A stretch of 32,657 nucleotides of DNA from Actinomycetota bacterium (GCA_040255725.1 JBDZVK010000004.1:1-32657); one strand, 5' to 3'. Positions 1,435 through 25,270 are shown, counted from the first letter of the stretch. Notes: generated by a model not told the origin, from the letters alone. Made by a program: numbers and translations.

Positions 1435-1450
1435 CTAGATAGCTGTCTAG
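1435..1450. promoter_or_regulatory. Candidate TetR operator: 16-bp near-perfect palindrome in the divergent esterase/TetR intergenic region
   Basis: CTAGATAGCTGTCTAG is palindromic except for one symmetric mismatch pair. It lies 15 nt upstream of the proposed TetR start and between the divergent genes, a classic TetR autoregulatory layout. Confidence 0.45.
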
Positions 1451-1464
1451 TATCTTTTTGCACC

Positions 1465-2145: not shown

Positions 2146-2212
2146 CGGGCCTGAAGCACGATGCCAACGGCGTCGGCGGGCAGGAAACGGCCGAACACCT
2201 CGCTGGTACTGG

Positions 2213-2560
2213 TCAGCTCCCCGGGGGTTCGGGCGGATCCGGGAGATCCCAGACCGCGGCGTAGGTGTCGCGCACCCGCGGCCAGATGCGCGCGAGGGCG
2301 TCGTCGAGGTCGACGAGCCGGCCGGCGTCGTCGCCGTCGACGATGAACTCGTGCACGATGATCCGGCCGCTGCGGTCGCACCGCCCTTCGGGGTCGGCGA
2401 GGCGTAGCGCCACTCGGTCACCGACCCGGCGCAGCGACGGTGGGTCGTCGGCGTCGAAAGGGAAGCACCGTTCATAGGTGGGCAGCGGGTCGGCGAGGCC
2501 GCCGGTGCACAGGAACGTGAAGCCCCAGGTGTACCCACGGGTCGCCCAGATCAGGCTCAT
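2213..2560 (-). CDS. 115-aa hypothetical protein, translationally coupled to the upstream GTPase gene
   Basis: The internal ATG at 2560 (MSLIWATRGYTWGF...) overlaps the TGA (2557-2559) of the GTPase ORF as ATGA. The rest of ORF 2213..2887 is an Arg/Pro-rich shadow of the GTPase gene. I recognise no family motif. Confidence 0.6.
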   Translation of the reverse strand: MSLIWATRGYTWGFTFLCTGGLADPLPTYERCFPFDADDPPSLRRVGDRVALRLADPEGRCDRSGRIIVHEFIVDGDDAGRLVDLDDALARIWPRVRDTYAAVWDLPDPPEPPGS

Positions 2561-3807: not shown

Positions 3808-3863
3808 GGTCGAGCTCTGCGCGGCCGGCTTCGCTGTGGCCGCTCGACGAATGGGGCCGCACG

Positions 3864-4184
3864 ATGCGGCACGTGGTGATCGATGGTCCGGGCAGCGTCA
3901 CGGTGGCGAGCGCGCCGGATCCGGTGCCGCCGGGGCGCGACGGGGTCGTGGTCGAGGTGGATGCCGCGGCGATCTGGTTCGGATCTGCACTTCTACGACA
4001 GCGACCTGGATGTGGGTGGGGGCGTGGCGGTCGGCCACGAGTTCCTGGGCACGATCGTCGAGACCGGCCCCGACGTGTCTCGTTTCGGGGTCGGCGACCG
4101 GGCGCCCTGGACGACGCTGCGGAGGCGGACGCGACCGTCGCCGCCCGAAGCCCCGACTGCATCAGAGTACGGCTGAGACGCTGA
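3864..4184 (+). pseudogene. Remnant of a Zn-dependent alcohol dehydrogenase (MDR family): frameshifted, with most of the gene deleted
   Basis: Frame 0 reads MRHVVIDGPGSVTVASAPDPVPPGRDGVVVEVDAAAI. The conserved continuation (C)GSDLHFYDSDLDVGGGVAVGHEFLGTIVETGPDVSRFGVGDR is in frame 1 from about 3975, where the Cys codon is broken. From 4104, frame 0 reads ALDDAAEADATVAARSPDCIRVRL, an MDR C-terminus. The middle of a normal ADH, a few hundred codons, is absent. Confidence 0.65.
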
Positions 4185-4266
4185 CCCCTCTGCCGGAACT
4201 GCGAACTCGACGCGACCGCTTCGCGGCGAATGGGCGGAGGTCCAGCGTCGTGTCCCTGACGCGGCG

Positions 4267-5247
4267 CTAGCCGGTGTAGGAAGGGTTCGCCGCCACCGGA
4301 CTTGCCGGCTTCGCCGCATGGCTGCTGTGCGATGTGGTCGGAGGAGCTGCGATGGTCGTCGTCGGCCCAGCAGTGGTCGTCGTCGGCTCGGCGCAATCGG
4401 CGACCGGGGTGACCGTCACCGAACCATCGCCCTCGTTCACGCCGGGACTCGTGGAGTCGCCCAGGCTGGAGCCGCCACCGCCGCCACCGCCGGCAGCGAA
4501 GCTTCCTGCCCCACCGCCACCTCCGCCGTAGAGGCCACCTCCGCCTCCGCCGCCATCGAAGTCGGCACCATCGCCACCGGCTCCGAGCGAGCCGTCTCCC
4601 CCGGCCGGATCCCCGGCGCCACCGGTTCCACCGGCACTCGTGGACGCTGCCCCTCCGCCTTCTGAACCCCCGTCGCCTTCACCGGTTCCGGGTGTCGCCG
4701 GGTTTCCACCGTTCCCGCCGACGCCGGAGTCGGGGCCGTCCTCGGAGTAGCCGGCGCCGCCGCCACCGCCCCCGACGATCACGCGTGCGTCCAGTCCGGT
4801 TCCACCCTGACGGACATCCGACGCTCCTCCGCCGCCGCCGGCAGCGATGTCCTCGGGGTCACCCGAGGAACCGTCACCACCGCCGTTCCAGCCGCCCTGT
4901 GCCCCGGCGTCATAGGCTTCGCCTCGACCCCCGACATTCACCTGCAGGGTCTCTCCGGGTGTCACCGCCACCGTCGAGGTCGCCTCGCCTCCCAGACCCG
5001 GCGACGGCTGCCCTAGGTCGGAGTCGTAGTCGCCCTGTCCGCCTTGGGCTCCGGAGGCCACGATCTCGACCGCACAGACCCCGTCGGGCACCACATAGGT
5101 TTGCGCTGCTCCGGTGAAACCGAAGCTCGCCCCGTCTGGCAGTGCGGCGCCGGCCGAAGGGCCGCCCGCCAGCGTCGATCCGAGCAGCAGGCCAATGGTC
5201 GACGCACCGACCACTCCGACATTGCGAATCTTCGAGATCGCCCCCAT
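4267..5247 (-). CDS. Secreted glycine-rich protein (Gly_rich/ALK-LTK-like glycine-rich domain) with a Thr/Pro-rich tail
   Basis: Start ATG 5247 is preceded by AGGAGGAG with a 6-nt spacer, and a signal-like N-terminus follows (MGAISKIRNVGVVGASTIGLLLGSTLAGGPSAGA). FTGAAQTYVVPDGVCAVEIVASGAQGG...TLQVNVGGRG is followed by long poly-Gly tracts. Confidence 0.7.
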   Translation of the reverse strand: MGAISKIRNVGVVGASTIGLLLGSTLAGGPSAGAALPDGASFGFTGAAQTYVVPDGVCAVEIVASGAQGGQGDYDSDLGQPSPGLGGEATSTVAVTPGETLQVNVGGRGEAYDAGAQGGWNGGGDGSSGDPEDIAAGGGGGASDVRQGGTGLDARVIVGGGGGGAGYSEDGPDSGVGGNGGNPATPGTGEGDGGSEGGGAASTSAGGTGGAGDPAGGDGSLGAGGDGADFDGGGGGGGLYGGGGGGAGSFAAGGGGGGGSSLGDSTSPGVNEGDGSVTVTPVADCAEPTTTTAGPTTTIAAPPTTSHSSHAAKPASPVAANPSYTG

Positions 5248-5466
5248 CGCGCACTCCTCCTGAGTTTCCACTGGTCGTTCAAGCGGTCGTTCAAACGGTC
5301 GGGATACGCTACCAGAACACCCAGCTGGCGGCGATGCCCCGTATCCGGCAGCAACACGATCTCCTCCCTGGGCAGGGCCACGACGCCGAGTTCCGTGAGC
5401 TCGAGGCGCGGTGGCCGGACTCGACTCAAACCGGTGCAGCGTGCGCCTCGCGGCGACGGCGTCTGG

Positions 5467-6384: not shown

Positions 6385-6938
6385 GGCAGGTGACGATACG
6401 ACCTCGCTCGACGGTCCGCTCGCACACTGACCGCCGACCGCTACGGGCCCCGACACCGTCTTTGCACATCTTTCCCCGCGTGAACGAGGAAAACCGTGCA
6501 ATGACATGCTCACCGGCCCGGCACGAGCATCGAGCCATCACCTCAGGATTCGATGAGGGCCAGCCTCGGCTCTGGAGTTCCGCGCCCAGGGTCTCGGAGG
6601 GGATCCTGGCAACGGCGCGGGCCTGCGTCGCTGCGGTCCGTTCGGCAGCGGTCACCGGTCTACGAGCCCGCCGCGACCGGGTCGAACCCGTCCCCGTGAC
6701 CTCACTCCCCCCCGCTGCGCGTACGCTGCAGGCGCTGTTAGCCCCGGCTATTCACGGTGGGGGTGGTCTGAGGTCGCGACGCTTCGACCTGGTGAAGGTG
6801 TCGGCAGCGCCGTCGCGCTGATGGCCGAATATCCAACGACCATGACCGAGCGACGTGGGGCAGTGCGAGATCGTCGCCGCCGACGCCGACATTGCCGGTG
6901 CGAATCCGTGACGATGCTTGTGCTGCCAAAATGCATGC

Positions 6939-7172
6939 ATGGCATCGATCACCGTGCGTGATGTTCCTGATGGCGTCCGCGACGAGCTCGCTTCACGGGC
7001 AGCCCGCACGGGGCGTTCGCTGCAGGAGTACCTGCGCAAACAACTGATCGAACTCGCGGGCCGTCCCGATCGGGAGCTGCTCGCCAGCCGGATCGTCGAA
7101 CGCAAAAGTCGCACAGCGACGAAGCTTCCGGCCTCCAAGATTATCGGACATCGAGACGCCGACCGCCAATGA
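6939..7172 (+). CDS. vapB: Ribbon-helix-helix antitoxin (VapB/FitA-like)
   Basis: MASITVRDVPDGVRDELASRAARTGRSLQEYLRKQL is a typical Arc/RHH antitoxin N-terminus. The stop overlaps the vapC ATG (ATGA at 7169-7172). Confidence 0.75.
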   Translation: MASITVRDVPDGVRDELASRAARTGRSLQEYLRKQLIELAGRPDRELLASRIVERKSRTATKLPASKIIGHRDADRQ

Positions 7173-7582
7173 CCCTGGCGGCCGAGGCTTCAGCAGTCGT
7201 TGCTGCACTCGTCGAGACCGGTCCGGCGAGCACCTGGGCTGAAGGGCTGCTCACCTCCAGGCTGGTTGCACCGCAGCTGTTGCATGTTGAAGTCGCCAAC
7301 GTGCTGCGGCGGGCCGCTGGCACTGGTGCGATCATCGACGACATTGCGTCGCTCGCCCACGCCGACCTGGTCGACCTTCGGGTCGAGCTGGTTCCCAATG
7401 AGCCCGTTGCGGCACGGGTCTGGGCGTTGCGCCACGACCTGACGGCGTACGACGCGTGGTACGTGGCCGCCGCCGAGCTCATCGATGCGCCGTTGGCCAC
7501 CCTCGATGAGCGTCTGGCCGCCGCGCCCGGCCCGAGGTGTGCGTTCCAGACGCCGACCGATGCGGCCGGCCGCCAAGACTGA
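7169..7582 (+). CDS. vapC: PIN-domain toxin (VapC family)
   Basis: 137 aa. PIN acidic positions are present in LHVEVANVLRR, TAYDAWYVAAAE and ATLDERL. The first acidic residue is Glu (LAAEASAVV) instead of the usual Asp. There is a 4-nt overlap with the antitoxin gene. Confidence 0.75.
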   Translation: MTLAAEASAVVAALVETGPASTWAEGLLTSRLVAPQLLHVEVANVLRRAAGTGAIIDDIASLAHADLVDLRVELVPNEPVAARVWALRHDLTAYDAWYVAAAELIDAPLATLDERLAAAPGPRCAFQTPTDAAGRQD

Positions 7583-7781
7583 ACCGTTGCGGCACCCGCT
7601 GCGGAAAGCATGCAATGACTCCCTTCATGCATGGGATCGCCGGTCAACGGTCGAAGTCGTCGTGGAGCGTCTGGAAGCGATGTCCGGAGCGCCCGAGCAG
7701 GCGCATCGGCGCGGGCGAACTCGTGGTACTCGATGGCGCATGTCACTCGGAGTGCCGTGCTCGGAGCGATGCGACGCCGGC

Positions 7782-7960
7782 ACTCACCTCGACCGACTGG
7801 CCGAGTGGCCAAACTCCGCAGCGCAGGTCCATCGGGCCGAGGCTGTGTGAACGAGCAGATTGCTGGCCTGGGCGATTTCCCGCAGGTGGTCAGGGACGAC
7901 GTCGTCGGCGACACGGTTGTGGTGGTGGCCATCTATCACGAACGGCGCCGTCCAGGATCG
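7782..7960 (+). pseudogene. Possible decayed RelE/ParE-family toxin gene (frameshifted remnant)
   Basis: One frame ends HLDRLAEWPNSAAQVHRAEAV* at 7850. The next frame continues VNEQIAGLGDFPQVVRDDVVGDTVVVVAIYHERRRPGS (7847-7960), resembling the ParE C-terminus (compare RK2 ParE ...ALVVAILHERMD). No intact ORF covers a full toxin. Confidence 0.35.
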
Positions 7961-9659: not shown

Positions 9660-9973
9660 GAAGACGGTCGCGACGGGGTGACCGGGCTTGAGGAAGTGCC
9701 GCTTTCCGGTTGTTCGTCGATCGGTGGTCCTGGATGGCGACGAGAGTACCGATGACGTGTGACATCGGGTTCGGGGCGGCCCGGCGGGCGTCGCGGGTAT
9801 GCCCCGCACGAAGTGTTCGGGAGGCCGGACCGCCGCGACCGTGTGCCGATGCCGGTTGCACGATGCGTCGGGCCGGCGGCGACGGGTGAGCATCCTCGGG
9901 TCGGGGTCGCTGGAGCCGGTTGTGGGGCCGGGACGAGCCGGGCGAGTCGATGTTTCGGAGAGCCCGGCAGCTC

Positions 9974-11161
9974 TTACGGTGTCGGGCCGGGTCGGAAGAG
10001 GATTTCGAGCACGTCGGGCGCTTGGAACACCCGGCTGTAGTTGCGGCCGGTGACTTCGCTGAGGATGCCTGCGTCGACGAGCCGGGCGACGGCGACGTTG
10101 GCGGCCTGCTTGCTGACACCGTGTGCCGCGGCGACGTGCTTGACGGTGATCGACGGGTACTCGATGAGTCGTTCGGTGACGGCGACGGCGGTGCCGCTCA
10201 TCCGTCGGCTTCTGATGCGTTCCAGTGCCTGGTCGCGCCAGTCGAGGAGGGCGTGGATGCGCGCCTCGGCGTGCTGGGCCTGGGCGGTGAGCGCTTCGCA
10301 GAAGTAGGTCACCCATTCGTTCGTGGCGCCGGTCGTGCTGACTTCTCGAAGTCGGTGGCGGTACCGGTCCGATTGTGCCTCGAAGTACGGGGAGAGGTTG
10401 ATGAGCGGTGCGCTGAGGAGCCCGTAGTCGATGAGTTGCAGGATCGCCAGGAGGCGGCCGATCCTGCCGTTGCCGTCGGTGAAGGGGTGCAGAGCTTCGA
10501 ACTGATAGTGCGCTGCGGCCACGCGTATGACCGGGTGGATGTCGGATTCCGTGTGGATCCACTGTTCCCAGGCGCGCAGTCCTTCGTCGAGCTCGGGGCC
10601 AGGCGGTGGTGGGACGTAACGCGCCTCGCTGATGCTGCACCCGTGGTAGGGGCCGATGAAGACCTGGGTGCTGCGTACGTTGCCGGCTTGCCAGTCGTCG
10701 CTGGGAGTGCCGGCGACGAGAAGGCCTTGGAGTTCACAGGCGAGCCGCCGGCCGAGGGGAAGGGTGGCGATGCGATCGATCCCGTGTTCGGTGGTGTCGA
10801 TGAAGTTGAGGATCTCGACCATCGCCGCGCTTCGGGGAATGGTCGCATCGATGTCGGAGCTGAGCACGTCGGCTGCTGGGGCGAACGTGCCTTCGAGTGC
10901 CGAGGTGCTCACCGCTTCGCGGCGGATGGTCGGACGAGCGATCAGTATCGGGTTCGGCAGGAGTTCCTTTGCCAGGGCATCGAGCCGCCCGAGGTGATGG
11001 GCCGCGTCGATCGCCGCGCCCCAGGTCTTGGGCGACAGCTCCAGGTCGGCAGGAAGTGGATCGGGAATGAACGCGGCATGCTCGACCGTGCTGCCGCCTT
11101 CGTCGACGGTGACGGGAACGAGCCGACCAGTGGGCGAGTTCCTGAAGATCTCGATGTCCAC
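9974..11161 (-). CDS. Fic family protein (Fic/DOC AMPylase-type) with Fic_N-like N-terminus and C-terminal wHTH
   Basis: The canonical Fic motif HPFTDGNGRIGR is present. The C-terminal region SITVKHVAAAHGVSKQAANVAVARLVDAGIL looks like a winged helix. Start is GTG at 11161. Confidence 0.9.
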   Translation of the reverse strand: MDIEIFRNSPTGRLVPVTVDEGGSTVEHAAFIPDPLPADLELSPKTWGAAIDAAHHLGRLDALAKELLPNPILIARPTIRREAVSTSALEGTFAPAADVLSSDIDATIPRSAAMVEILNFIDTTEHGIDRIATLPLGRRLACELQGLLVAGTPSDDWQAGNVRSTQVFIGPYHGCSISEARYVPPPPGPELDEGLRAWEQWIHTESDIHPVIRVAAAHYQFEALHPFTDGNGRIGRLLAILQLIDYGLLSAPLINLSPYFEAQSDRYRHRLREVSTTGATNEWVTYFCEALTAQAQHAEARIHALLDWRDQALERIRSRRMSGTAVAVTERLIEYPSITVKHVAAAHGVSKQAANVAVARLVDAGILSEVTGRNYSRVFQAPDVLEILFRPGPTP

Positions 11162-11192
11162 AATTCAAGTCTAGACAAGTGCTGCTTGAATT
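11162..11192. promoter_or_regulatory. 8-bp perfect inverted repeat in the divergent Fic/sigma intergenic region (candidate operator)
   Basis: AATTCAAG (11162-11169) and CTTGAATT (11185-11192) are separated by 15 nt containing the TCTAGA palindrome. The repeat lies immediately upstream of the Fic start in an AT-richer 205-bp intergenic region. Confidence 0.3.
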
Positions 11193-11366
11193 TCAGCGGT
11201 GCAATTTCACGTCGAGCGGCCCACGTCCCTCAGAAATCAAGGTCAGTACCCGTGGGCTTGAGGTTCCTCCTGTGGATTTCAACCGTCGAGTGGGGGAGCC
11301 GCAAAGCCGAATGGATGTCGGAGTCGAACAGCGTGATCCAGGGACCCCTCCGGACCTCGATGTCAC

Positions 11367-12572
11367 ATGGTGCAGCTAGTTTGTCGAGGAATGGAGGAGT
11401 TGGAAGGGGGCACTGGGGTGAACACGAATCCACTCGACGTATTGCTGGAGCAGGTGACGTCACTGACGCGGGGTTCGAAGTTTCCTCGATCCGAATTCGA
11501 GACCTTGTTGCGAGAGAACGCACTTCCCGCTGCGGAGTACCGGAAGCTCCGGGAGGCGCTCGACGAGTTGGGTATCGAGATCGTCGACGCCATCGACGGG
11601 GATCAGGATTCACGGGAGGGCGTCGACGGAACGGATCAAGGCGGATGGCACGCCGATGGATTCGGCGAGTTCATGCGGAAGACCACTCACCGGGTTCTCA
11701 CCTTCGAAGAGGAACAAGCACTCGGAATGCGCATCGACGCGGGACGGCTCGCGGCATCGGCGCTGGAGGAAGGCGCAGGAATCTTTGATGGTCGAGCGCG
11801 GCGTGATTTTGAGCGCCGCGTTGCCGACGGCAAGCGTGCTGAGTCAGAACTGGCACTCCACAACATTCGACTCGTGGTCAGCATTGCCACCGAACTCCGG
11901 CAGCGTACGACTCCCGCTCTCGAATTCGAGGATCTCGTGCAGGAAGGCTATGTCGGACTCGCTCGAGCGGTCGCGAAGTGGGAGTACGCGCGGGGGCTGA
12001 AGTTCTCGACGTACGCGACCTGGTGGATACGACAGAGTCTTCAGCGTGCGGTCGCGAACAGAGCATCGACGATACGTTTGCCGATGCATGTCAGGGACGA
12101 CTTGCGGCGCATCCGTACCGCCGAGTGGACGATGAAGCGCAAGGGGAAGACCGTCGATGATGGAGAGATCGCACGCCATTGTGACCTTCCAGTTGCAACG
12201 GTCACCCGACTCCGATCGATGGGTCGTCCGACGCTCTCACTGGACAAGCTGATCGGGAACCGCTCGGTCTCAGTCGGAGACTTCGTCGCCGATGACGAGT
12301 TCGCCCGGCCGGAACGGGTGATGGAAGACCGGATGGTGCGTCATGAGATCCTCGCGGTCATTGCCAAGTTGCCGGAGCGTGAGTGCGAAGTCTTGCTGCG
12401 GCGCTATGGGCTGACTCCGGGACAACGGGCGGAAACCCTTGAACAGATCGGCCATCGATTCGGCGTCACCCGGGAGCGGATCCGGCAGATCGAAAAGAAG
12501 GCGTTGACCAGACTCCGAGAGGCCCATGCCGGGGAACTCCGTGACTTTGCCGAATCATTGATGGAGGTCTGA
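11367..12572 (+). CDS. Sigma-70 family RNA polymerase sigma factor with regions 1.2, 2, 3 and 4 (group 1/2-like, not ECF)
   Basis: Region 1.2 is LTFEEEQALGMRIDAG; region 2 is NIRLVVSIA...FEDLVQEGYVGLARAVAKWEYARGLKFSTYATWWIRQSLQRAV. Region 3 is STIRLPMHV...LSLDKLIG; region 4 is LPERECEVLLRRYGL...LEQIGHRFGVTRERIRQIEKKALTRLRE. An alternative start, GTG 11418, is preceded by GGAAGGGGG. Confidence 0.9.
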   Translation: MVQLVCRGMEELEGGTGVNTNPLDVLLEQVTSLTRGSKFPRSEFETLLRENALPAAEYRKLREALDELGIEIVDAIDGDQDSREGVDGTDQGGWHADGFGEFMRKTTHRVLTFEEEQALGMRIDAGRLAASALEEGAGIFDGRARRDFERRVADGKRAESELALHNIRLVVSIATELRQRTTPALEFEDLVQEGYVGLARAVAKWEYARGLKFSTYATWWIRQSLQRAVANRASTIRLPMHVRDDLRRIRTAEWTMKRKGKTVDDGEIARHCDLPVATVTRLRSMGRPTLSLDKLIGNRSVSVGDFVADDEFARPERVMEDRMVRHEILAVIAKLPERECEVLLRRYGLTPGQRAETLEQIGHRFGVTRERIRQIEKKALTRLREAHAGELRDFAESLMEV

Positions 12573-12578
12573 TTCGAG

Positions 12579-15281
12579 ATGATCGCGTGTTGGGACTGCA
12601 GGAATCTCGAGGCGTTCGTTCAGGTTTCACCGCGTGGTGATGCGCGGCAGGTCACGCAGCTGTCGTCAGGGCTGAAGCCGACGGAGTGGGGTGGGTCTGA
12701 TGCTCGTGAGCCCGGCATCTTCTGCGCGAGGTGCGACAAACCAGTTGATGCGGACCTCGCTGAGCTGGGACTCGTCGATGATCGTGTCGCCTTCGTGTCG
12801 CCGGACGAGTTCGATGCCGATGCCGCGGCGGTCGAGTTGATGGCCCTTCGGCCAGCAGCGGCATGGACGAGGCTCGATCTGCCCGAACGTCTCCCGAGGT
12901 TTGCCGACATCCCGGCCGACCTCCATCCGGATCTGCTCGAGTCGCTCCGTCGAACCAAGCGCGACCGACTGTTCGTTCATCAGGCCGAAGCCACCCAGGC
13001 AGCATTGGACGGGGGTCATGTCGTTCAGGCGACCTCTGCTGGGAGTGGCAAGTCGCTCGGATTCACCCTTCCGGTGCTGGATCGCCTGCTGCGGAACCCC
13101 GAGGCGACAGCGTTGTTTGTGTTCCCCCTCCGGGCCTTGGCGAATGACCAGATGGCGGCGCTCGAGCGCTTCGGCGTCGTGTCGGATCCATGGGTGAACG
13201 CGACGTCGTTCGACTTGAGGGTTGCTGACGCGTCGACGCCGATCCGGGTGGCGCGTCATGACGGATCTACGCAGGATCACGAGCGGTCCGAGGTCCGGCG
13301 CGCCGGTCGCATCATCATCACGACACCCGACTCCTTGCACGCAGCGATCCTCGGGAACATGAACCGGAGCTACAAGGACGGCACGTCCTGGCGCAGGATC
13401 CTCCATGGCCTGCAATTCGTGGTGCTGGATGAATTGCACACCTATCAGGGGGTGTTCGGGAGTGGCGTGGGGAACGTGATTCGTCGGCTGCGCCGGGCAT
13501 GTGCCCGCTTCGATTCGGTGCCACAGTTCCTCGCCGCCTCAGCGACGATCGGGAACCCGGTCGAACTGGCAGAGAATCTCACCGGTCTGTCGCCGTTCGT
13601 GCTCGTCGACGACGACGCCTCACATCGACGCCGACGAGTGTTGTTGGTCTGCAATCCACCGTCTCGGGTCGCGGATGACCCGGCGACCAAGGCCCTGAAG
13701 ACCAAGCGCGCGGCTTCCGGTAGTGAGCAGGAATCGCCTGAAGATCCGATCGACGATCTGTCCGGGCGCATCGCCCCGCAGACCATTGCGATTGATCTGC
13801 TCGCCAAAGGAGCCTTGGCCGGTCAGGGGCACCCTCCGGTCAGGTCGATCGCGTTCTGCCGGAGCCGGAACGCGGTCTTCCAGTTGGCGCAACGCACGAA
13901 GTCGATGCTGGGTGAACTCCACCGAGATGACCTCGTGGCAAGTGTTGCTCCGTATGCGGCGACGTTCCTGGCCGATGACCGTGTCGAGGCCGAGGGCAAG
14001 TTGCGTGACGGGTCGACACTCGCGATCACCTCAACGAACGCCCTCGAGCTCGGTATCGATATTTCGGATCTGTCGATCGCGATCCTCGTGGGCTACCCGG
14101 GTCAGATCTCTTCTTTCCGACAGCGAATCGGCCGCGCGGGCCGCACGGGCGAGGGCTTGGCGGTGTTGATCGTCGGTGACGATCCGCTGCAGCAGTACTT
14201 GGCCCGTGACCCGGACGCGCTTCAGGCATTGCTCGATGCGCCGCCCGAATCGGTGGTCGTGAATCCTGAGGCGCCCGAAGTCGTTCGACGGTACGGGCTT
14301 GCGCCTGCACAGGAGGAAGCAGACGGTATTGCCTTCGAGGATGCTGAGTACTTCGGTGAGGCGGCGGTCCATGCGTGGCTGGCCGACGCGACCGGCGCCC
14401 CCGAAGTCGAACGAAAAGGGGTTGCGTATTGGCGGGTGCCCTGGGAAGGGGAGCCGCACCGAGCCGCGCTTCGTAATGCCGTGTCGTCCAAGACGTACAC
14501 CGTCCTGCACCAGACGGGGAAGGACTTCAAACCCATCGGGACATTGGACGAGGGGACGGCACCGCGGGATGCATTCGTGCCCGCGATCTGGAGCGGTCCT
14601 GAAGGTCAGCTCTACCGAGTGACCGGCTTCGACCAGAAGGCCAGTGAGATCTACTGCGAGGGGCCGGTGAACGTCCAGTACCTGACGAGGGGCATGTCGG
14701 TCGACCACGTGGAGGTCGTCAGCGATCAGCTCGAACCGGTGCATCTTGGGAGCTCGGTGATCGGCTACGGCGAGCTTGCAATCAACCGGCAGGTGTTCTC
14801 CTACAAGGAGCAGCACTTTTCGGGCGCAGAACAGAGCCGCCAGGTCGAGCGCGGCTGGCCGCCGGTCGAGTTCGTCACCGACGGCATGTACGTGCGCATT
14901 GGCGAGGGTCTGTTCGGCGATCACCATCGTGACGATTCGATGCGGGCCCTCGAGCACCTGTTCCTGAGTGTCGCTCCGGCCCTGGTCGCGTGCGACCCGT
15001 ACGACCTCGACAGTGCCTCGGCGGGCTCGTCGTTGTTCCTGTACGACAGCTTCGGCGGCGGGATCGGCCTGTCGGGAGCAGCGGCGAAGCGATTCGGTGA
15101 CCTCGTGGACCTCGCGTACGAGGTTGTGGTGACGTGCCCGTGTGAGAAGGGATGCCCGTCGTGTGTGATGCTGAGCCGCCGGCCGGACGGCAATAGGTCA
15201 TTGTCGAAGGACGGCGCGGTAGCGGTGCTCGAAGCCATCCGCGCGATGGAGGGTGTTCGACGATTACAGTCGTACAAATAG
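12579..15281 (+). CDS. DEAD/DEAH-box helicase with C-terminal DUF1998/MZB zinc domain (MrfA/YprA-like) and an N-terminal CxxC...CxxC zinc ribbon
   Basis: Motifs: LFVHQAEA, Walker A TSAGSGKS, FPLRALANDQ, DELHTYQGVFGS, SATIGNP, and helicase-C TNALELGIDI...QRIGRAGRTG. The C-terminus LYDSFGGGIGLS...TCPCEKGCPSCV is DUF1998-type. The N-terminus has CWDC...CARC. The ATG lies 6 nt after the sigma stop. Confidence 0.9.
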   Translation: MIACWDCRNLEAFVQVSPRGDARQVTQLSSGLKPTEWGGSDAREPGIFCARCDKPVDADLAELGLVDDRVAFVSPDEFDADAAAVELMALRPAAAWTRLDLPERLPRFADIPADLHPDLLESLRRTKRDRLFVHQAEATQAALDGGHVVQATSAGSGKSLGFTLPVLDRLLRNPEATALFVFPLRALANDQMAALERFGVVSDPWVNATSFDLRVADASTPIRVARHDGSTQDHERSEVRRAGRIIITTPDSLHAAILGNMNRSYKDGTSWRRILHGLQFVVLDELHTYQGVFGSGVGNVIRRLRRACARFDSVPQFLAASATIGNPVELAENLTGLSPFVLVDDDASHRRRRVLLVCNPPSRVADDPATKALKTKRAASGSEQESPEDPIDDLSGRIAPQTIAIDLLAKGALAGQGHPPVRSIAFCRSRNAVFQLAQRTKSMLGELHRDDLVASVAPYAATFLADDRVEAEGKLRDGSTLAITSTNALELGIDISDLSIAILVGYPGQISSFRQRIGRAGRTGEGLAVLIVGDDPLQQYLARDPDALQALLDAPPESVVVNPEAPEVVRRYGLAPAQEEADGIAFEDAEYFGEAAVHAWLADATGAPEVERKGVAYWRVPWEGEPHRAALRNAVSSKTYTVLHQTGKDFKPIGTLDEGTAPRDAFVPAIWSGPEGQLYRVTGFDQKASEIYCEGPVNVQYLTRGMSVDHVEVVSDQLEPVHLGSSVIGYGELAINRQVFSYKEQHFSGAEQSRQVERGWPPVEFVTDGMYVRIGEGLFGDHHRDDSMRALEHLFLSVAPALVACDPYDLDSASAGSSLFLYDSFGGGIGLSGAAAKRFGDLVDLAYEVVVTCPCEKGCPSCVMLSRRPDGNRSLSKDGAVAVLEAIRAMEGVRRLQSYK

Positions 15282-15439: not shown

Positions 15440-15509
15440 ATGCAAGATGATGATCTGAAGCAACGCGACACTGTGGAACCACCACCGCGCGTTCTTCATC
15501 TATTTACAG
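15440..15509 (+). pseudogene. Probable original 5' end (23 codons) of the gene interrupted by the IS
   Basis: GGAGG with a 5-nt spacer precedes ATG 15440, which reads MQDDDLKQRDTVEPPPRVLHLFT up to the left IS end. It is in the same phase (position mod 3) as the ORF resuming at 16526; the IR-bounded segment is 1017 nt, or 3 x 339. Confidence 0.4.
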
Positions 15510-15532
15510 CGTTGAGAGGCCGCGCGGCTAGG
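15510..15532. repeat. Left terminal inverted repeat of the IS
   Basis: CGTTGAGAGGCCGCGCGGCTAGG matches the reverse complement of 16504-16526 (CGTTCAGTGGCCGAGCGGATAGG) at 19 of 23 positions. Confidence 0.6.
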
Positions 15533-15639
15533 AAAAAGGGTGTTTGACCTGGGGTTTTGTCGCGTTTGTGGTGACCATCCACCAGTCGTCGGGGTCGACC
15601 CGATTTTGATTACGGGGTGAACACGACAAACAACGACCA

Positions 15640-16500
15640 GTGGAGGTCCCCTCTATCATGCGCGCGTTCGACCCTGAAGTGATGGATGCGGTGTGGGCAG
15701 CAGTCGAAGGGCTGATTCCTGAACCCGTGGAGACGCACCCGTTGGGTTGCCATCGGCCCCGGGCATCGGCGAAAGCTTGTTTCAAGATGATCCTGGTGCG
15801 TCTGGTGACCGGGTGCGCCTGGGTTGACGCGGAGTTCCTGTGTGACCGGGAGGTGTCCGATACCACCGCTCGTGCCCGCCGTGACGAATGGATCGCAGCA
15901 GGGGTGTTCGACCGGTTGATCGACGAGGCACTCGCGGGTTACGACCGGATCATCGGGCTGGCTCTCGCCGACGTGTCGGTGGACGGTTCGTTGCACAAAT
16001 CCCCTGCTGGAGGTGGGGGAACCGGACCGAACCCGACCGATCGCGGCAAACTCGGCCACAAGTGGTCGATCCTCGTCGACGAGAACGGTGTTCCGTATGG
16101 GCTGGCACTCGCGGGTGCGAACCGGAACGATTCGATCCTGCTCGAACCCACTCTGGACGACGCCGCGAGGCGCGGTCTGCTGCTCGACACCGAGACGATC
16201 TGGTTGGATCGCGGTTATGACTCGAAAGCCACCCGCGACCGGCTCGATGCCCGCGGGCTGACCGACGCGATCATCGCGAGGAAACGACCGCGTGGGGCGG
16301 CCAAGAGTCCGACACCGAAGCTGCCGATGGGCCTGCGATGGCCAGTTGAACGCACCAACTCGTGGCTGTCGAACTTCGGGCAGCTCCGCCGGAACACCGA
16401 CCGAGACCAGATCCGGCGCCTCGCACAGTTCCAACTCGCCATCGTATTCCTGCTCACCGCGAAACTCATCGACTGGAAAAACCGCTGGTCACGGACCTGA
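15640..16500 (+). CDS. IS5-family DDE transposase (DUF4096-type N-terminus + DDE_Tnp_1)
   Basis: 286-aa ORF with GTG at 15640 and an alternative ATG at 15658. Characteristic stretches include AVWAAVEGLIPEP...HPLGCHRPR...FKMILVRLVTGCAW, and the DDE-region motifs VSVDGSLHKSP, WLDRGYDS and VERTNSWLSNFGQLR. Confidence 0.9.
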   Translation: MEVPSIMRAFDPEVMDAVWAAVEGLIPEPVETHPLGCHRPRASAKACFKMILVRLVTGCAWVDAEFLCDREVSDTTARARRDEWIAAGVFDRLIDEALAGYDRIIGLALADVSVDGSLHKSPAGGGGTGPNPTDRGKLGHKWSILVDENGVPYGLALAGANRNDSILLEPTLDDAARRGLLLDTETIWLDRGYDSKATRDRLDARGLTDAIIARKRPRGAAKSPTPKLPMGLRWPVERTNSWLSNFGQLRRNTDRDQIRRLAQFQLAIVFLLTAKLIDWKNRWSRT

Positions 16501-16526: not shown

Positions 16527-17923
16527 AGTTCCGTGATTCACTCGTCGCACTTGAGGAGATTATTGCGGAGCTTGGGCCAAGAGTGGAACGCCTTGACTCG
16601 CTCGAAGCCGCACTTCCTACGGGGCCCCACGACCTTAATCTCACTAGTGGGCAACTGGAGTTTGCGCGCCGAGAACTAGCGCAGCTGGACCCTCAGCTAT
16701 CGAGTAACACGCAGCTCAACCTTGAAGACGTTGATGATTTCCTCGGTCGAGCCGACGAACATGACCTCCCACCCCAAAAAGCAATTCCACTCTATTTTAT
16801 CCTGCAAATGGTCAGTCGTAGATCAAAGCGTACCCAAATACTATCATCGGCGCTATTGGCCTCGGCCGTTGGAAGCTTCGAAGTTCTCGTATCTGAGATT
16901 GCCCGCTATTTCTACAATGCTCGACCGACCGCACTGGCGACAGGTGAGAAGGAGTTTACGCTCGTGGAACTTGAGAGCTTTGAATCTATAGATGACGCGC
17001 GTCAGTCAGCTATCGGAGCACGTGTTGACTCATTGATGTTCAAGTCTACAGCGGGCTGGTTCGATTGGTTGAAGAGGAATGTAGGTTTTGGTTTGGAGGA
17101 GATAGTCGATGACGTAGACAAATTCGTAGAGATCTTTCAACGTCGTCATATTGCGGTTCATAATGGAAGTCGGGTCTCGAGGCGCTATCAAATTAATGCG
17201 CCTCAGGGCAGCGCCCCGAATGAACTCGGGTCAGTCGTCACGATAGACGATCAATATTTAAGAGACTCGCTTGACTCACTTCTATTGGTTGGACTTGTCG
17301 CTAGTCTCGTAGCAATTGTAAGGCTGGATAATGAGTTTGCCGATCTGTCACTGAGTAGGCTAAGTGATGAGTCTTATCAGTCGCTACTAGATAGGAAATG
17401 GGTCCTCGCGAAAGAATTGACGGCCTGCGGATTGAAGTTGAAGATGAAGGAGGCTGACCTAACTCGCTTCAAGGTCAACAACTGGATCGCGAGAGATCGA
17501 CTTGCTGAGCCGATTGCCGCCGAAGTCGAATCGTTAGACGTATCAGCAATGGAACCGGTATTCAGACTAGCGAAGGCGGCATTGCTTCGGGAGGACGGTA
17601 AAGTTGTTGACGCCCTCGAGAATGCAATTAGCCTCCGTCATATGGATTACGTGGAGCTGTGCGAATGGCCACTCTTCTACTATGTGCGCCGGCATGATGA
17701 GTTCGGACGGAAACTGGCAACAATTTACGCATCTCTTGATGAATTCACACGAACAAGACTTACATCGCTTGACGCAACCATTTCCAAGAATAGCAAACGA
17801 TATCACGAGTACGGATGTAAGCGTGCGGGGGCTGAGTCTGTACCCGTATTGGTTCGTACCGCGCAGGATATGGGGCTTGAACCTTGTCAGTTGTGTGCGC
17901 GGGCAGTAGCAGAGACTACCTAG
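16526..17923 (+). CDS. AT-rich HEPN-motif protein (Abi/RiboL-PSP-like candidate RNase), 5' end displaced by the IS
   Basis: This is the part of ORF 16292..17923 lying outside the IS (465 codons). An Rx4-6H motif in a helical context, FVEIFQRRHIAVHNGSRV, sits at nt 17141-17161. A helical C-terminal half follows and ends with an H/C cluster, YHEYGC...PCQLC. The first internal start is GTG 16583. This is the lowest-G+C gene in the window. Confidence 0.55.
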   Translation, partial: EFRDSLVALEEIIAELGPRVERLDSLEAALPTGPHDLNLTSGQLEFARRELAQLDPQLSSNTQLNLEDVDDFLGRADEHDLPPQKAIPLYFILQMVSRRSKRTQILSSALLASAVGSFEVLVSEIARYFYNARPTALATGEKEFTLVELESFESIDDARQSAIGARVDSLMFKSTAGWFDWLKRNVGFGLEEIVDDVDKFVEIFQRRHIAVHNGSRVSRRYQINAPQGSAPNELGSVVTIDDQYLRDSLDSLLLVGLVASLVAIVRLDNEFADLSLSRLSDESYQSLLDRKWVLAKELTACGLKLKMKEADLTRFKVNNWIARDRLAEPIAAEVESLDVSAMEPVFRLAKAALLREDGKVVDALENAISLRHMDYVELCEWPLFYYVRRHDEFGRKLATIYASLDEFTRTRLTSLDATISKNSKRYHEYGCKRAGAESVPVLVRTAQDMGLEPCQLCARAVAETT

Positions 17924-18087: not shown

Positions 18088-20040
18088 TCAGCCGCCATAT
18101 GGTTCATACGTTTCGTCATCAGATCGTTCTCCATCGGTTCGATGTGGAAGACGGATTAGACGGTCGTCGGGTGTAAGCGTCGCGACGACTGCGTCGGCCG
18201 CGAAGGCTGGCACGTCGTTATCGAGAGCGATGACCTGTAGACGCCCGGCGTACTCCTTGGTTTCCTCCAGGAGAAGCTTGTAGGTGTCATCTCGCCGAGC
18301 TAAGTCAAATCCTTCGCTTCCCACGTTGTTTGATAGGCCATCCAGTACAAGCAGCGAGGGCAATGGGAGGTTATGGTCTAAGGATACTGTGTGATGAGCG
18401 AGCGCGTGCGCGACGTTAACCAGGACCGTGAGACCCTGGCTGGAGAGTTCGTCGAATGGTCGGCCGCTTACTTCGGGCAAATAGCTCGTTCTATTGATGG
18501 CGGCGGTAAGTGGCAGATCCGACAGTGATACGTGAAGCCTTTGCAGGTAGTCCACGAATCGAGCTTCTAGATCGGTCAGCAGTTGTTCGGACCGATCGCT
18601 CAGTCGTTCATGCTGAGCGAGGGCGTCCATCAAGTCGGCCCGCTTTTCCTCGAGGGCGACGAAGTGCCCTTCAGAGTCGGCGTACCGGGCGAGCAGCTGA
18701 CGATACTCTCCGAGCTGCTCGATGCGGCCTTCAAGAGTTGCTCGCTGCTGCGCAGCGATGACCATCGCCTCTGATCGCTGTGAGACGAATTCGGCGGTGC
18801 GGCGATCAAGTTCCGCGTTGGCGGAGGATGTCTCGTCCCGAATCTGATCGCATTCGGCCTTCAACGCGGCAAGCTCGTCTCGCCGAAGTTCGATGAGCGA
18901 CTGGGTCTCTACAATCTGGCTGGCGATCCGCTCCTGTTCCGCGACGAGCTCATCACGGTGGTTCCCCTGCTGCGGCTCTTGCAGGCAGAGGTAGCAGTGT
19001 CCATCCGCTGAGCGTGACGCCTCAACTCCGGTGCCACATCGGGGGCATACCACGAAGTCAAAATCGACGAGCCACTCATCTGCAACGATCGCCCGCGTGA
19101 GCCGATCGGACTGAGTCATGAGGGTCTGATGGAGTTCGTTCAACTCCAGAAGGTTTCGGGAGGCCGCGCGTTCAGTAGCCGTTGCCGATGCCAGGGCATC
19201 TTCGAGCCTCGCGACCGTGTCGCGAAGCACCTGACTCTGCGTTTGCTCAAGTCCCTCAACCGCTGCTGTCTTGACCCTCGTGTCAAGATCCACGATCATT
19301 CTTTTGGTCAGTGCAACTTGCTCATCGATGTCGTCGAGGCTGGCGAACGGGGTGTCCTTCAGAAACATCCGAACGGCCTCGTTCGATCTGTCGAGGTCTT
19401 CGAGGCGAAGCTCGACGCTACGAAGTCGTGCTTGGAGGGCGGCGGTTTCTGTGTCGTAGATCCCGTAGTTCAGTTCGAACACGGCCCGCCGCTTCCTGTC
19501 CTTGTACGGGTCTCGATGCCCGAACACCGTGGTGTCGATCTCGTCGTCGCGAACGATGCAGTAGAGCAGCCAGTCATTGATCGTGACCGGCGACGCTTCG
19601 CTCGTTGCCTGAGTGCGCGCCCTGGGGACTGCGACTGCGGGAATGGCAAGGCGATCGAGTAGCCACTCGATGTACGTCTCCGGATCCGTCGCGGTGGGGC
19701 GCTCTGCTGGAAGCCGGAGCGTGTCGATAATCCGTTCTGGCTCCCCGTCGTCGCCAGGCCCCCGGCGACTCAGCGAGACCATTGCGGTCTTTGTAGTGAC
19801 GAGAGGTCGATCGATCTCCCACATGCTTTCGCCGAACGACACTCGCCCGTGGACGGATCGGACTGAGCTTGTCTCGGGCGGGAGGTGTTCAGGTACGCGA
19901 CCAAGCAGCGCCCGAATGAGTCTGACGACGGTTGTCTTGCCCGTGGTGATGGATCCGCTGATGACCGAGAAGGCACCAGCGAAGTCGATGGTGCGATTGC
20001 CGCCGACAAGGTCGATGCGGTGAAGTCGAATTTCGTGCAC
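18088..20040 (-). CDS. ABC/SMC-like ATPase with a long coiled-coil insert and central 4-Cys zinc hook (ABC-3C system ATPase)
   Basis: The N-terminal head has Walker A GSITTGKTT. A heptad-rich helical region of roughly 300 aa contains CPRCGTGVEASRSADGHCYLC. The C-terminal head has the signature-like LSSQG and Walker B LLVLDG; the residue after Asp is Gly, not the usual Glu. Start is GTG 20040, preceded by GAAGAAGGGA. Confidence 0.8.
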   Translation of the reverse strand: MHEIRLHRIDLVGGNRTIDFAGAFSVISGSITTGKTTVVRLIRALLGRVPEHLPPETSSVRSVHGRVSFGESMWEIDRPLVTTKTAMVSLSRRGPGDDGEPERIIDTLRLPAERPTATDPETYIEWLLDRLAIPAVAVPRARTQATSEASPVTINDWLLYCIVRDDEIDTTVFGHRDPYKDRKRRAVFELNYGIYDTETAALQARLRSVELRLEDLDRSNEAVRMFLKDTPFASLDDIDEQVALTKRMIVDLDTRVKTAAVEGLEQTQSQVLRDTVARLEDALASATATERAASRNLLELNELHQTLMTQSDRLTRAIVADEWLVDFDFVVCPRCGTGVEASRSADGHCYLCLQEPQQGNHRDELVAEQERIASQIVETQSLIELRRDELAALKAECDQIRDETSSANAELDRRTAEFVSQRSEAMVIAAQQRATLEGRIEQLGEYRQLLARYADSEGHFVALEEKRADLMDALAQHERLSDRSEQLLTDLEARFVDYLQRLHVSLSDLPLTAAINRTSYLPEVSGRPFDELSSQGLTVLVNVAHALAHHTVSLDHNLPLPSLLVLDGLSNNVGSEGFDLARRDDTYKLLLEETKEYAGRLQVIALDNDVPAFAADAVVATLTPDDRLIRLPHRTDGERSDDETYEPYGG

Positions 20041-20057
20041 GTCGGTCCCTTCTTCGG

Positions 20058-20597
20058 TCAGTCGACGGCTGCGTGCCAGTTGGCGTTGGTCATCTCAGGA
20101 ATCGCCTCGTACAGCAGGTTCTTGAGTGTGGAGCCGCTTAGGTCGAGGTGCCGTCTGACCAGGATCGCTCGATGGTTCACCGCTTCCCAGGTCTCGTCAT
20201 CCAGGATGGATCCGACGAGACCCCGCCCGCGATCGGTCACTCGGTAACCGATACCATGTTTGAACGGGATGGGCTCGACGAGCCCCCGACCGATGAGGCT
20301 GCCGAGAACCGCATAATAGGACGGGTCCCGCGGACCGTATCGGTAGCGAATCATTTTGTCTTGCAGTGGTGTCGGTTCAAGCACGACCGACGCAACGATC
20401 TTCGCCGAGACGTTTCGGTTTGCGAGCACACGCGCGAGGTACTTCGGGTAGCGAACGAGGAAGTCCAGCTTCGCGAGTTTGAGGCGCCCCTCGAGTTGCC
20501 TCGGTTTTTCGACTTTTCCGCTGAACGCGTTGATGAGCAGGAGCACGCGTCCTTCGGATTCCGGCAGGGACCGGAACTTTGTCAATCGATCGGTCAT
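20058..20597 (-). CDS. ABC-3C middle-component candidate (179 aa)
   Basis: ATG 20597 (MTDRLTKF...) overlaps the effector stop as ATGA (20594-20597), and the gene ends 17 nt before the ATPase start. Its size and position between effector and ATPase match the ABC-3C layout; I cannot verify a specific family motif. Confidence 0.5.
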   Translation of the reverse strand: MTDRLTKFRSLPESEGRVLLLINAFSGKVEKPRQLEGRLKLAKLDFLVRYPKYLARVLANRNVSAKIVASVVLEPTPLQDKMIRYRYGPRDPSYYAVLGSLIGRGLVEPIPFKHGIGYRVTDRGRGLVGSILDDETWEAVNHRAILVRRHLDLSGSTLKNLLYEAIPEMTNANWHAAVD

Positions 20598-21814
20598 GCC
20601 GACCGCCACTCGAACAGGCACCGATCCGACAGCTCACACACTAGGCCGAGTACGAGCCCACCATCCTCGTCGAGCACGCAGTCGCTGTCCAACGCTCCAA
20701 GCAGGCCCGTCTGTTGGACGAGCCTGCCGTAGATGACTTCGGCCGGCCGTCCCGCTTGTGCGCTTCCGGCGGAAGACCCGACGACGTCAGCGGTCACGGC
20801 GTCAGCGTGTTCGAGCGCTCTGTCCTCGAGAGCGACGAGCTCGTCGTCGACGTCGCCATCGAGCGTCGCACGTTCCGCTAGCCGGATGGCTGTGACTGAC
20901 CGACGTTTCTGCGCTCTGGTGATCGTCTTTTCCTCAGCGCCGGCGACTCTGAGTTTCCACTCCAGATCGGTCATGGCCAACGCTCCGCCGTTTGCCGCTT
21001 CGAGAAGGCGACGCTGCTCTGCCGCGAAGATAGGTACGGGTGGAAGGATCGAGAGGAGCTCCGCCCTGGACAACAGGTGTTCCACAACGGTCTCCTGCTC
21101 CTCAGTGCCTGGGCGCGGCTGAAGAGCCAACGGATGCTCCGGGTCTGCAGAAGCCACCGATCCCAGATGAGCAGCGATCACGCGTGCGAGGAGCTTGTCG
21201 TAGACGTCCTCAATGACCGAGGTGTGACCAGGAACGAGCTTCATCAAGAGCCGGTGGGTGACAGCGTCAATGGAAGCGCGGGAGTAATACTGCGGGGAGA
21301 TTGTCAGCCGGCCGAGGAAGTCAGCGATGTCGCCGGCTGCCAGACCGAGTGCCCTTAGCTTCTTCTTCTGGTCGTTCGTGGCTTTGGAAGGGGTAGCGAA
21401 GAACGTGCGCGTCTCGGGCCGTGTCCCTTCTGGTCCCTCGAGAATGAGCTCGAGTCGAGTGGAGACAGCGACACCGGCCGCCTTCGCGAGCTTGTACGAG
21501 CGGACGAGGGCATCGATTCCACCGCCGTCTTCAAGGACCTTCGCTTGGGTCCAGGAGCCCCTGTCACGCGTCTTCACCTGTGCGAAACAGAGCTCGGTGC
21601 TGGTCGACGTGGTGATGTCGTCGACGAACTCGCATAAGATGAAGGCGTCGGCACCGAGATCGAGCGTCTTGAGCCAGCGCTGAACTCCGACTTTGCACTG
21701 GTAGATGTATCGGGCGAACGTCTCGCTTCCGCTCGTGTCGCCCGGCCCCAGCTCGGCGAGCGCGTCCATTGCACGGACGTGTGGGGACTCCTCACCACCT
21801 GGCGTCGTAGTCAT
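20594..21814 (-). CDS. ABC-3C effector: Cap4-type dsDNA nuclease domain (DUF4297, PD-(D/E)xK) plus a helical C-terminal domain
   Basis: The N-terminus GSETFARYIYQCKVGVQRWLKTL...AFILCEFVDDITT...FAQVKTRD matches the DUF4297 pattern (G..G..YQ ... E..DD ... QVK). The ATG overlaps the stop of the upstream ORF (ATGA at 21811-21814). Confidence 0.7.
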   Translation of the reverse strand: MTTTPGGEESPHVRAMDALAELGPGDTSGSETFARYIYQCKVGVQRWLKTLDLGADAFILCEFVDDITTSTSTELCFAQVKTRDRGSWTQAKVLEDGGGIDALVRSYKLAKAAGVAVSTRLELILEGPEGTRPETRTFFATPSKATNDQKKKLRALGLAAGDIADFLGRLTISPQYYSRASIDAVTHRLLMKLVPGHTSVIEDVYDKLLARVIAAHLGSVASADPEHPLALQPRPGTEEQETVVEHLLSRAELLSILPPVPIFAAEQRRLLEAANGGALAMTDLEWKLRVAGAEEKTITRAQKRRSVTAIRLAERATLDGDVDDELVALEDRALEHADAVTADVVGSSAGSAQAGRPAEVIYGRLVQQTGLLGALDSDCVLDEDGGLVLGLVCELSDRCLFEWRSA

Positions 21815-24036: not shown

Positions 24037-24075
24037 TCATAGGACGGCTAAAATCCACCGTGTAATTGCGGGCAG

Positions 24076-25257: not shown

Positions 25258-25270
25258 AGTGGCAGGCGAG

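Follow-up and report, generated by a model that had tools for sequence, protein, structure and literature searches.

We describe a pair of adjacent genes in a 32,657-nucleotide stretch of DNA from an Actinomycetota bacterium (GCA_040255725.1 JBDZVK010000004.1:1-32657; hereafter the window, from whose first letter coordinates are counted unless another locus is named). Located on the plus strand within a defence island, the pair consists of a gene for a sigma-70-family factor (11391-12572; 393 amino acids; stop codon TGA at 12570-12572) and a gene for a DExH helicase of the YprA/MrfA family (12579-15281; 900 amino acids; Pfam domains DEAD, Helicase_C and MZB). Only 6 nt separate the sigma stop codon from the helicase ATG at 12579, and a GGAGG ribosome-binding site for the helicase, read from the sequence, lies within the 3' end of the sigma gene (12563-12567, plus strand). 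An earlier note, made by a model from the sequence alone, had reported both open reading frames (ORFs), the 6-nt gap and the embedded GGAGG, all of which are confirmed in the sequence. By contrast, its start for the sigma gene, ATG 11367, is probably wrong: a conserved promoter motif spans 11361-11382, and this codon falls in its spacer. Translation likely begins either at ATG 11391, in agreement with the 393-residue gene call (P0001), or at the alternative GTG 11418; ATG 11391 would be leaderless or nearly so, and GTG 11418 sits behind GGAGGAG/GGAAGGGGG. Between the two genes there is neither a consensus -35/-10 promoter nor an internal terminator.

The sigma factor and the helicase form one unit

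The pairing is conserved from whichever gene it is approached. On the sigma side, a clade of relatives (P0002-P0030) shares 37-47% identity with the window sigma over about 90% of its length, with scores exceeding the plateau of about 200 bits at which generic RpoD/HrdB matches lie. Seven clade members on long contigs were looked up, and each has a DEAD/Helicase_C/MZB protein of 880-895 amino acids directly downstream. On the helicase side, scans of species-representative genomes and metagenomes showed that every close relative (at least 53% identity, matching from residue 1) has a sigma gene of this clade directly upstream, as do the closest relative (L072, 69%) and a kinase-fused variant (L067). 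Overall, the pair occurs in 19 of 19 distinct loci with usable upstream sequence, at sigma identities of 34-47%; a distant pair (L016) displays identities of 34% and 33%. The 18 entries scored (which include the window and duplicate contigs) represent 14 distinct related loci; 13 of these have a stop-to-start gap between -4 and +6 nt and the remaining one a gap of 114 nt, and most of the junctions appear to be translationally coupled. When 15 loci are compared, pairwise identities of the sigma correlate with those of the helicase (r = 0.76, Mantel p = 1e-4), a pattern that joint inheritance would produce. Flanking genes vary between loci, with neighbours differing in every one and no conserved third gene upstream or downstream of the pair. 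Sigma homologues lacking a linked helicase, which the earlier note had named as a possible refutation, were also looked for, and the linkage held in every clade member looked up. The earlier note's view of the two genes as one unit is thus substantiated by the 19 loci, the apparently coupled junctions and the co-varying identities.

In a neighbour-joining tree the sigma clade is distinct and monophyletic (29 of 29 members, no intruders, 56% bootstrap support), with internal distances twice those among ordinary primary sigmas. These results bear on the simplest alternative, in which an ordinary hrd-type paralogue came to lie beside a repair helicase by chance. Group-2 sigma paralogues are indeed commonplace in actinobacteria; however, the linkage in 19 of 19 loci despite sigma identities of 34-47% and unrelated flanks, together with a monophyletic sigma clade set apart from generic RpoD/HrdB matches, refutes chance adjacency, to which we assign a negligible probability.

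A collection of 5.8 billion proteins contained approximately 85 clusters (90% identity) of clade helicases, all metagenomic or metagenome-assembled. Carriers with a taxonomic name are bins of Actinomycetes and Acidimicrobiia, Rhabdothermincola among them, together with one bin labelled Acidobacteriota. Representative genomes of 185,579 species provided only three close matches and one distant pair. Viral contigs contained no relative. PLSDB plasmids contained no clade member, their matches being at most 31% identical and lacking the N-terminus, and near-identical DNA was likewise absent from plasmids; a phage or plasmid origin was rejected on these searches. The best explanation is that the sigma factor and the helicase make up an operon of two genes that is complete in itself and moves horizontally among Actinomycetota, most of them uncultured.

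An accessory sigma factor with housekeeping-type reading residues

The sigma protein is a complete, region 1.1-to-4.2 sigma of group-1/2 type and not an extracytoplasmic function (ECF) sigma. Pfam domains Sigma70_r2, Sigma70_r3 and Sigma70_r4 were found, and region 2 (11856-12065), region 3 (12105-12317) and region 4 (12360-12521; all plus strand and approximate) follow an N-terminal 1.1-like domain (11415-11588, plus strand, approximate), an acidic linker and region 1.2. From region 1.2 to the C-terminus, the protein aligns with Streptomyces HrdB and mycobacterial SigA (E = 4e-53). The earlier description of a non-ECF, HrdB/RpoD-like sigma with regions 1.2 to 4 therefore stands on both the Pfam domains and this alignment, and the two motifs it had singled out, YATWWIRQSLQRAV in region 2.4 and GVTRERIRQIEKKAL in region 4.2, are present. 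In an AlphaFold2 model (mean predicted local distance difference test (pLDDT) score of 86.8), residues 9-66 fold with confidence into a small helical domain, after which comes an acidic stretch predicted to be disordered. Among known folds, the model most resembles the SigA chains of initiation complexes from mycobacteria and Streptomyces. Clade N-termini, compared by HHalign with region 1.1 of sigmas bearing PF03979, aligned over 54 columns (E = 8e-5, probability 61%). With moderate confidence, the first 70 or so residues can thus be considered a homologue of region 1.1, a group 1 feature.

The gene is nevertheless accessory and located on island DNA. The protein does not reach the level of the RpoD/SigA equivalog (226 bits versus the TIGR02393 cut-off of 354) and scores under the cut-offs of all RpoD, SigA and SigB models (NF004561 and others). 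Within this fast-evolving clade, conservation is concentrated in regions 1.2, 2 and 4: mean pairwise identity is 0.27 in region 1.1, 0.50 in region 1.2, 0.31 in the non-conserved region, 0.57 in region 2, 0.30 in region 3 and 0.47 in region 4. Structural work on sigma-70 factors has established that KFSTYATWWIRQ captures the -10 element and that VTRERIRQIE reads the -35 element. Both are invariant in the clade and identical to SigA/HrdB. Since these reading residues are kept while the rest diverges, selection appears to maintain a housekeeping-type reading of promoters, which argues that the sigma works as a genuine initiation factor and not merely as a scaffold.

This same pattern could also mean that the protein is a divergent copy of the housekeeping sigma acting as a surrogate or decoy for SigA: it would keep host transcription running after a phage has inactivated SigA, or would bait phage anti-sigma proteins. 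DNA-reading residues identical to those of SigA coexist with divergent surfaces (identity 0.27-0.31, regions 1.1 and 3). Among the three SigA residues that contact PafC, of the PafBC activator considered below, both arginines are kept in the clade, while the serine (S446), published as absolutely conserved in SigA, is S, A or K. Such a role would however leave the obligatory helicase unexplained, and we consider it very improbable.

A catalytically intact YprA/MrfA-family helicase

The helicase is a member of the YprA/MrfA family, with a superfamily 2 (SF2) DExH core and a C-terminal MZB/DUF1998 domain. Residues 107-863 match the structure of Bacillus subtilis YprA/MrfA (6ZNP, E = 1.4e-86). 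The Walker A motif AGSGKS (13038-13055, plus strand), DELH (13428-13439, plus strand), SAT and QRxGRxGR are intact, as is the zinc cluster of the MZB/DUF1998 domain (14949-15167, plus strand, Pfam MZB); these motifs and the cysteines, including the CxC...CxxC cluster, are invariant across 8 and across 49 relatives. Judging by these residues, the enzyme is predicted to be catalytically intact. The core is preceded by an N-terminal four-cysteine beta-ribbon (residues ~1-60; 12579-12758, plus strand), whose cysteines C4, C7, C49 and C52 are invariant in relatives, so that both the CxxC...CxxC ribbon and the DUF1998 domain announced in the earlier note are confirmed. A model of residues 1-125 forms a small beta-rich domain (pLDDT 92.7), for which a Foldseek search of the PDB returned no similar solved structure (nothing below E = 0.86).

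Assignment to a described system was not possible. The best NCBIfam match, TIGR03817, was well under its cut-off (438 versus 874 bits), PADLOC models of DruE, BrxH, SngC and DrmA gave partial core matches only, and the partner genes that would place the helicase in Druantia, DISARM or Dpd are absent from the pair. In agreement with what the earlier note had stated for the window, no MrfB-like exonuclease adjoins the helicase there, nor does one in the related loci with gene calls.

More distant relatives help to delimit what is specific to the pair. Generic MrfA-type helicases (about 34% identity, about 760 amino acids) have no ribbon. Conversely, sister helicases (33-44% identity) have the N-terminal ribbon and no sigma. 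One of them (L068, 44%) is preceded by a gene for 360 amino acids with a weak Pfam MUG113 match (6817-7899 of its locus); another (L070, 33%) lies directly after a type 1 bacteriophage exclusion (BREX) cluster (PglX, PglZ and BrxL) and is followed by a weakly matching PLD-family nuclease gene (10697-11323); the third (L071) is followed by GmrSD-type genes. In the wider helicase group, the neighbouring slot is thus otherwise occupied by nuclease-type genes. Because the ribbon occurs in sigma-less sister helicases, it is not a sigma-specific module, and a role as a sigma-specific docking domain is ruled out by L068 and L070. An ECF sigma gene with a zf-HC2 anti-sigma gene was observed near the sister helicase of L071, which lacks a primary-like sigma (218-1134, minus strand), and another ECF sigma gene, beside an unannotated gene for 251 amino acids, near the sigma-helicase pair of L002 (12296-13484, minus strand); both occurrences may be coincidental.

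In the kinase-fused variant (L067, 585-4175; 1,196 amino acids), which retains the upstream sigma, a clade helicase is fused C-terminally to a Ser/Thr protein kinase and adjoined by an FHA-domain gene (4184-5305). Kinase-domain matches were also observed on clade helicases in two more clusters (P0159 and P0208).

A PafBC-type promoter motif precedes the operon

Alignment of the DNA upstream of the sigma genes exposed a motif, TGTCA-N11-TA(C/G)nnT, in 12 of the 19 loci, ending 8-43 nt before the sigma start. In the window it reads TGTCA-N11-TAGTTT (11361-11382, plus strand), with the -26 element TGTCA at 11361-11365, an 11-nt spacer and a -10 hexamer, TAGTTT, that matches TAnnnT at 11377-11382, 8 nt before ATG 11391. 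The looser form GTC-N12-TAnnnT was present in 10 of 17 loci tested, compared with 0.16 expected from shuffles, and the motif occurs in 0.5% of background 120-nt windows from the same loci. In most sigma-helicase loci it is single-copy and placed upstream of the sigma. Three further loci have near matches, which differ either by a spacer that is 2 nt shorter within a G-run or by a single substitution in the -10 hexamer. The motif does not precede the sigma-less sister helicases of L068, L070 and L071, and no LexA/SOS box was found upstream of the sigma in the 19 loci.

In sequence and spacing, the motif agrees with the consensus of the PafBC activator, tGTCgg(N10)tA(N3)T, in which the -26 element is read by PafB and no -35 element exists (PMC8635444). 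This class corresponds to the historical RecA-NDp motif of the LexA-independent DNA-damage response of actinobacteria (PMC6789036, PMC8223512), and PafBC is triggered by single-stranded DNA (PMC11804915). The motif therefore suggests PafBC control of the operon, whose expression would probably be induced when single-stranded DNA arises or DNA is damaged. The pafBC genes themselves are not on the 32.7-kb window, which appears to be an entire metagenomic contig, since gene call P0001 lists a longest contig of 32,657 bases.

Two further exact matches to GTCA-N11-TAnnnT occur in the window (24619-24639 and 9743-9763, both minus strand), one of them with a perfect TATAAT; one is antisense inside a methyltransferase gene and the other downstream of SoFic. 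With no obvious gene start after either, and 0.64 matches expected per window, they may be due to chance. In L001, a second PafBC-type motif (4953-4973, minus strand) stands 7 nt upstream of an operon beside the sigma-helicase pair (1-4946, minus strand), the genes of which encode 227, 384, 658 (with a weak Sigma70_r4 match) and 2,238 amino acids; the three genes tested had no PADLOC match. This operon may represent another sigma-related, damage-inducible module.

The promoter motif also affects an idea put forward in the earlier note, that of a nucleic-acid-sensing helicase coupled to transcriptional reprogramming. Spelled out as a model, the helicase would hold the sigma inactive in the manner of an anti-sigma factor, perhaps via its zinc ribbon, until contact with foreign nucleic acid freed the sigma to reprogram or jam transcription; island genes would then be induced or the infection would abort. 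That the two genes are always paired and their translation coupled is suggestive of a 1:1 complex, and zinc-binding anti-sigma domains are common. YprA-family helicases of Druantia III are reported to engage replication intermediates that contain single-stranded DNA. However, the ribbon is present in the sigma-less sisters and has no structural match to solved anti-sigma domains, the predicted specificity of the sigma is a housekeeping one, and L001 is the sole sigma-helicase locus in which a PafBC-type motif, besides the sigma-upstream copy, precedes a further gene. Should the promoter prediction hold, sensing would already occur at operon transcription, which weakens the case for the helicase as the primary sensor. 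Overall, such gating of the sigma by the helicase appears distinctly unlikely.

Defence-island context

Base composition divides the window in two, with a G+C content of 0.70 in the left flank and of 0.61-0.64 from about 9 kb onwards. The left flank contains ordinary actinobacterial genes, namely those for an esterase, a TetR regulator and an F420-dependent LLM oxidoreductase, the last with 98% identity to proteins from uncultured actinobacteria. Also observed in this high-G+C part were genes for a Double-GTPase 2 (DO-GTPase2) protein (2557-3807, minus strand) and for a protein with an ALK/LTK-type glycine-rich domain (4267-5271, minus strand). From about 9 kb, the pair is surrounded by SoFic (9974-11161, minus strand, upstream of the sigma), a complete Lamassu system (LmuB/LmuC/LmuA, 18088-21814, minus strand; LmuB at 5.5e-79 in PADLOC and LmuA with a Cap4-type nuclease domain) and a Hma/Druantia-like set (21811-31708), which bears out the defence-island setting claimed in the earlier note. 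The Hma/Druantia-like set comprises an HmaC-like ATPase (E = 5.5e-151) that covers model positions 287-940 only and is thus short at its N-terminus, a C5 methyltransferase of divergent sequence, a DruK-like PD-(D/E)XK nuclease and the second YprA-family helicase of the island (1,798 amino acids, DEAD and MZB domains). No tRNA integration site was found, and Rfam RNA elements were absent from the window.

Downstream of the helicase, the earlier note had seen a HEPN-motif gene 158 nt away as a possible third component. What begins there is a stub of 35 codons (15441-15545), severed from the remainder of a low-G+C (about 0.50) HEPN-like ORF (approximately 16530-17923) by an IS4/5-family insertion sequence whose transposase (DDE_Tnp_1 and DUF4096 in Pfam) spans 15640-16500. 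The ORF carries an RRHIAVH (Rx4H) motif and has no Pfam, PADLOC or NCBIfam match. Given this disruption and the lack of a homologue in any of 72 related loci, a third component of this kind is ruled out.

Defence-type neighbours are found in the window and in six related loci (L002, L005, L009, L012, L067 and L072). Across loci, the neighbours include PDC-S11, PDC-S29, HEC-07, GajB-like helicases, GmrSD, PLD+MZB, Mrr, methyltransferases and an ARMADA-like set, while L011 and L012 also carry genes of the integrase or excisionase type.

Possible roles: defence, DNA repair or a helicase-equipped holoenzyme

The location in defence islands, the patchy and mobile distribution, the fast evolution, the kinase-fused variant and the pairing of sister helicases with nucleases lead us to favour, tentatively and at a little less than an even chance, a role in inducible defence against phages or mobile elements through a sigma-helicase module predicted to be PafBC-induced. 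The lower G+C content of the island relative to its flank in the window, and the integrase or excisionase-type genes of L011 and L012, also fit this role. Under this model, the operon would stay silent until single-stranded DNA accumulates, whether from genotoxic damage or from the replication of an invading phage or plasmid, at which point host PafBC and host SigA would turn it on. The reading residues identical to those of SigA suggest that the newly made sigma would then form an alternative holoenzyme initiating at SigA-type promoters. The helicase would be made in step with the sigma, probably bound to it, and would act as a 3'-5' translocase on DNA with single-stranded stretches.

Several observations weigh against this defence model. 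The promoter motif is missing or degenerate in 7 of the 19 loci, the complex of sigma and helicase is assumed from gene order alone, and the PADLOC matches of the unit are generic only. In addition, an AdnAB-like or UvrD-PD-(D/E)XK gene lies near the pair in L001, L008 and L067 (with at least one gene in between in L008 and L067), an AlkZ-like crosslink glycosylase gene lies one gene past the helicase in L005, and the closest solved relative of the helicase, MrfA, is itself a repair enzyme that acts in mitomycin repair.

The neighbouring repair genes and the kinship with MrfA also support the main rival model, DNA-damage tolerance or repair, in which crosslinks or stalled forks would be the substrates of the helicase, as they are for MrfA or SftH, the sigma would boost or sustain housekeeping or repair transcription under genotoxic stress, and the defence-island location would merely reflect a shared integration hotspot. 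The PafBC/RecA-NDp motif is moreover the signature of the actinobacterial DNA-damage regulon, which includes AdnAB, RecA, SigH and SigG. Conversely, a repair function fits poorly with the rare and patchy occurrence of the unit among species representatives, the variable flanks made mostly of defence or mobile genes, the rapid divergence of the sigma, the lack of an MrfB-type exonuclease partner and the kinase-fused variant adjoining an FHA gene. The same holds for the sister clades beside BREX or GmrSD genes, which are accompanied by a PLD nuclease, a GmrSD_N-domain gene or the weak MUG113 match. We regard repair as the main function as rather unlikely. The defence and repair models are not exclusive. 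In other bacteria, WYL-domain activators responsive to single-stranded DNA are reported to govern phage defence as well as damage responses.

A more novel reading can also be envisioned, in which a new immune or stress system would have as its working part the primary-like sigma itself, obligately coupled to a DNA helicase. Upon a single-stranded-DNA alarm, the sigma would build a helicase-equipped RNA polymerase holoenzyme that could keep or seize transcription from promoters of the housekeeping type, or could melt promoters where the template is damaged or relaxed, by loose analogy to TFIIH/XPB. We consider this reading unlikely. If true, no defence module before it would have had a full-length SigA mimic at its core.

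If it works as one unit, the pair joins three subjects that tend to be studied separately, namely promoter recognition by primary sigmas, helicases of the YprA/MrfA family and the way in which actinobacteria respond to single-stranded DNA through PafBC. It would offer a clonable two-gene system for asking what use a second housekeeping-type sigma has during DNA stress or infection. Further questions would be whether a sigma factor can bring a helicase to RNA polymerase, and whether mobile defence genes are among the targets of the PafBC alarm, as they are of WYL-domain regulators in other phyla.

Comparison with known systems

PADLOC, NCBIfam and Pfam have no model for the sigma-helicase pair, literature searches for a defence pairing of a sigma with a DUF1998/MrfA helicase found no description, and the main text of a 2025 survey of the YprA family mentions no sigma association (PMC12458937). 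Within the scope of these databases, these searches and that main text, the earlier note's statement that no such pairing has been described is upheld. DISARM, Druantia, Dpd, ARMADA, BRIGADE and TALON (PMC12458937) likewise combine a YprA-family core with variable partners in defence islands, but none of them has a sigma factor. In size, the window helicase resembles the 'YprA-only/MrfAB' type, with no BrxA-like insert and no nuclease fusion. MrfAB/YprAB of B. subtilis and mycobacterial SftH (TIGR03817) belong to the same helicase family, and the core of the window helicase aligns to 6ZNP; relative to them it adds the N-terminal four-cysteine ribbon region of about 100 residues and an insert of about 40 residues after RecA1. 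Unlike MrfAB, the pair has a sigma as partner instead of the MrfB exonuclease, is mobile and resides in defence islands. Judging from these gene and domain comparisons, the pair appears to be a YprA-family helicase module with an unprecedented partner, extending the partner range of these helicases past nucleases and methyltransferases.

A sigma-70-family protein in a defence system has a precedent in MzaA, an anti-phage component of the MZA system (PADLOC PDLC02203, NCBIfam NF041931), the models of which are matched by the window sigma. This match is generic: it covers positions 466-716 of 726, reaches 221 bits against a cut-off of 800, a score equal to that of the window sigma against RpoD, and involves only the generic sigma part, whereas MzaA is extended by a large additional N-terminal portion. 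The MZA system comprises several genes besides mzaA, and none of these partners was found next to the pair or in the window.

Dedicated sigma factors tied to defence or death on accessory DNA are also known. SigN of the B. subtilis plasmid pBS32 is linked to DNA-damage-triggered death. The ECF pair DdvS-DdvA controls an island containing CBASS and CRISPR systems (PMC11506125). Both resemble the window sigma in being dedicated factors linked to defence or death on accessory DNA. Promoters of the PafBC regulon, in turn, share with the motif upstream of the pair the GTC near -26, the TAnnnT -10 element 12 nt apart from it and the lack of a -35 element, and this regulon contains SigH, SigG and repair helicase-nucleases (PMC8635444, PMC8223512). 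The sigmas of that regulon are however ECF-type and chromosomal, while the sigma described here is primary-like and shares an operon with a helicase on mobile DNA. Similarly, DdvS-DdvA and SigN are ECF-type or divergent, with their own promoter specificity and anti-sigma or LexA control. By sharp contrast, the window sigma is complete from region 1.1 to region 4.2, has housekeeping-type reading residues and is partnered by a helicase.

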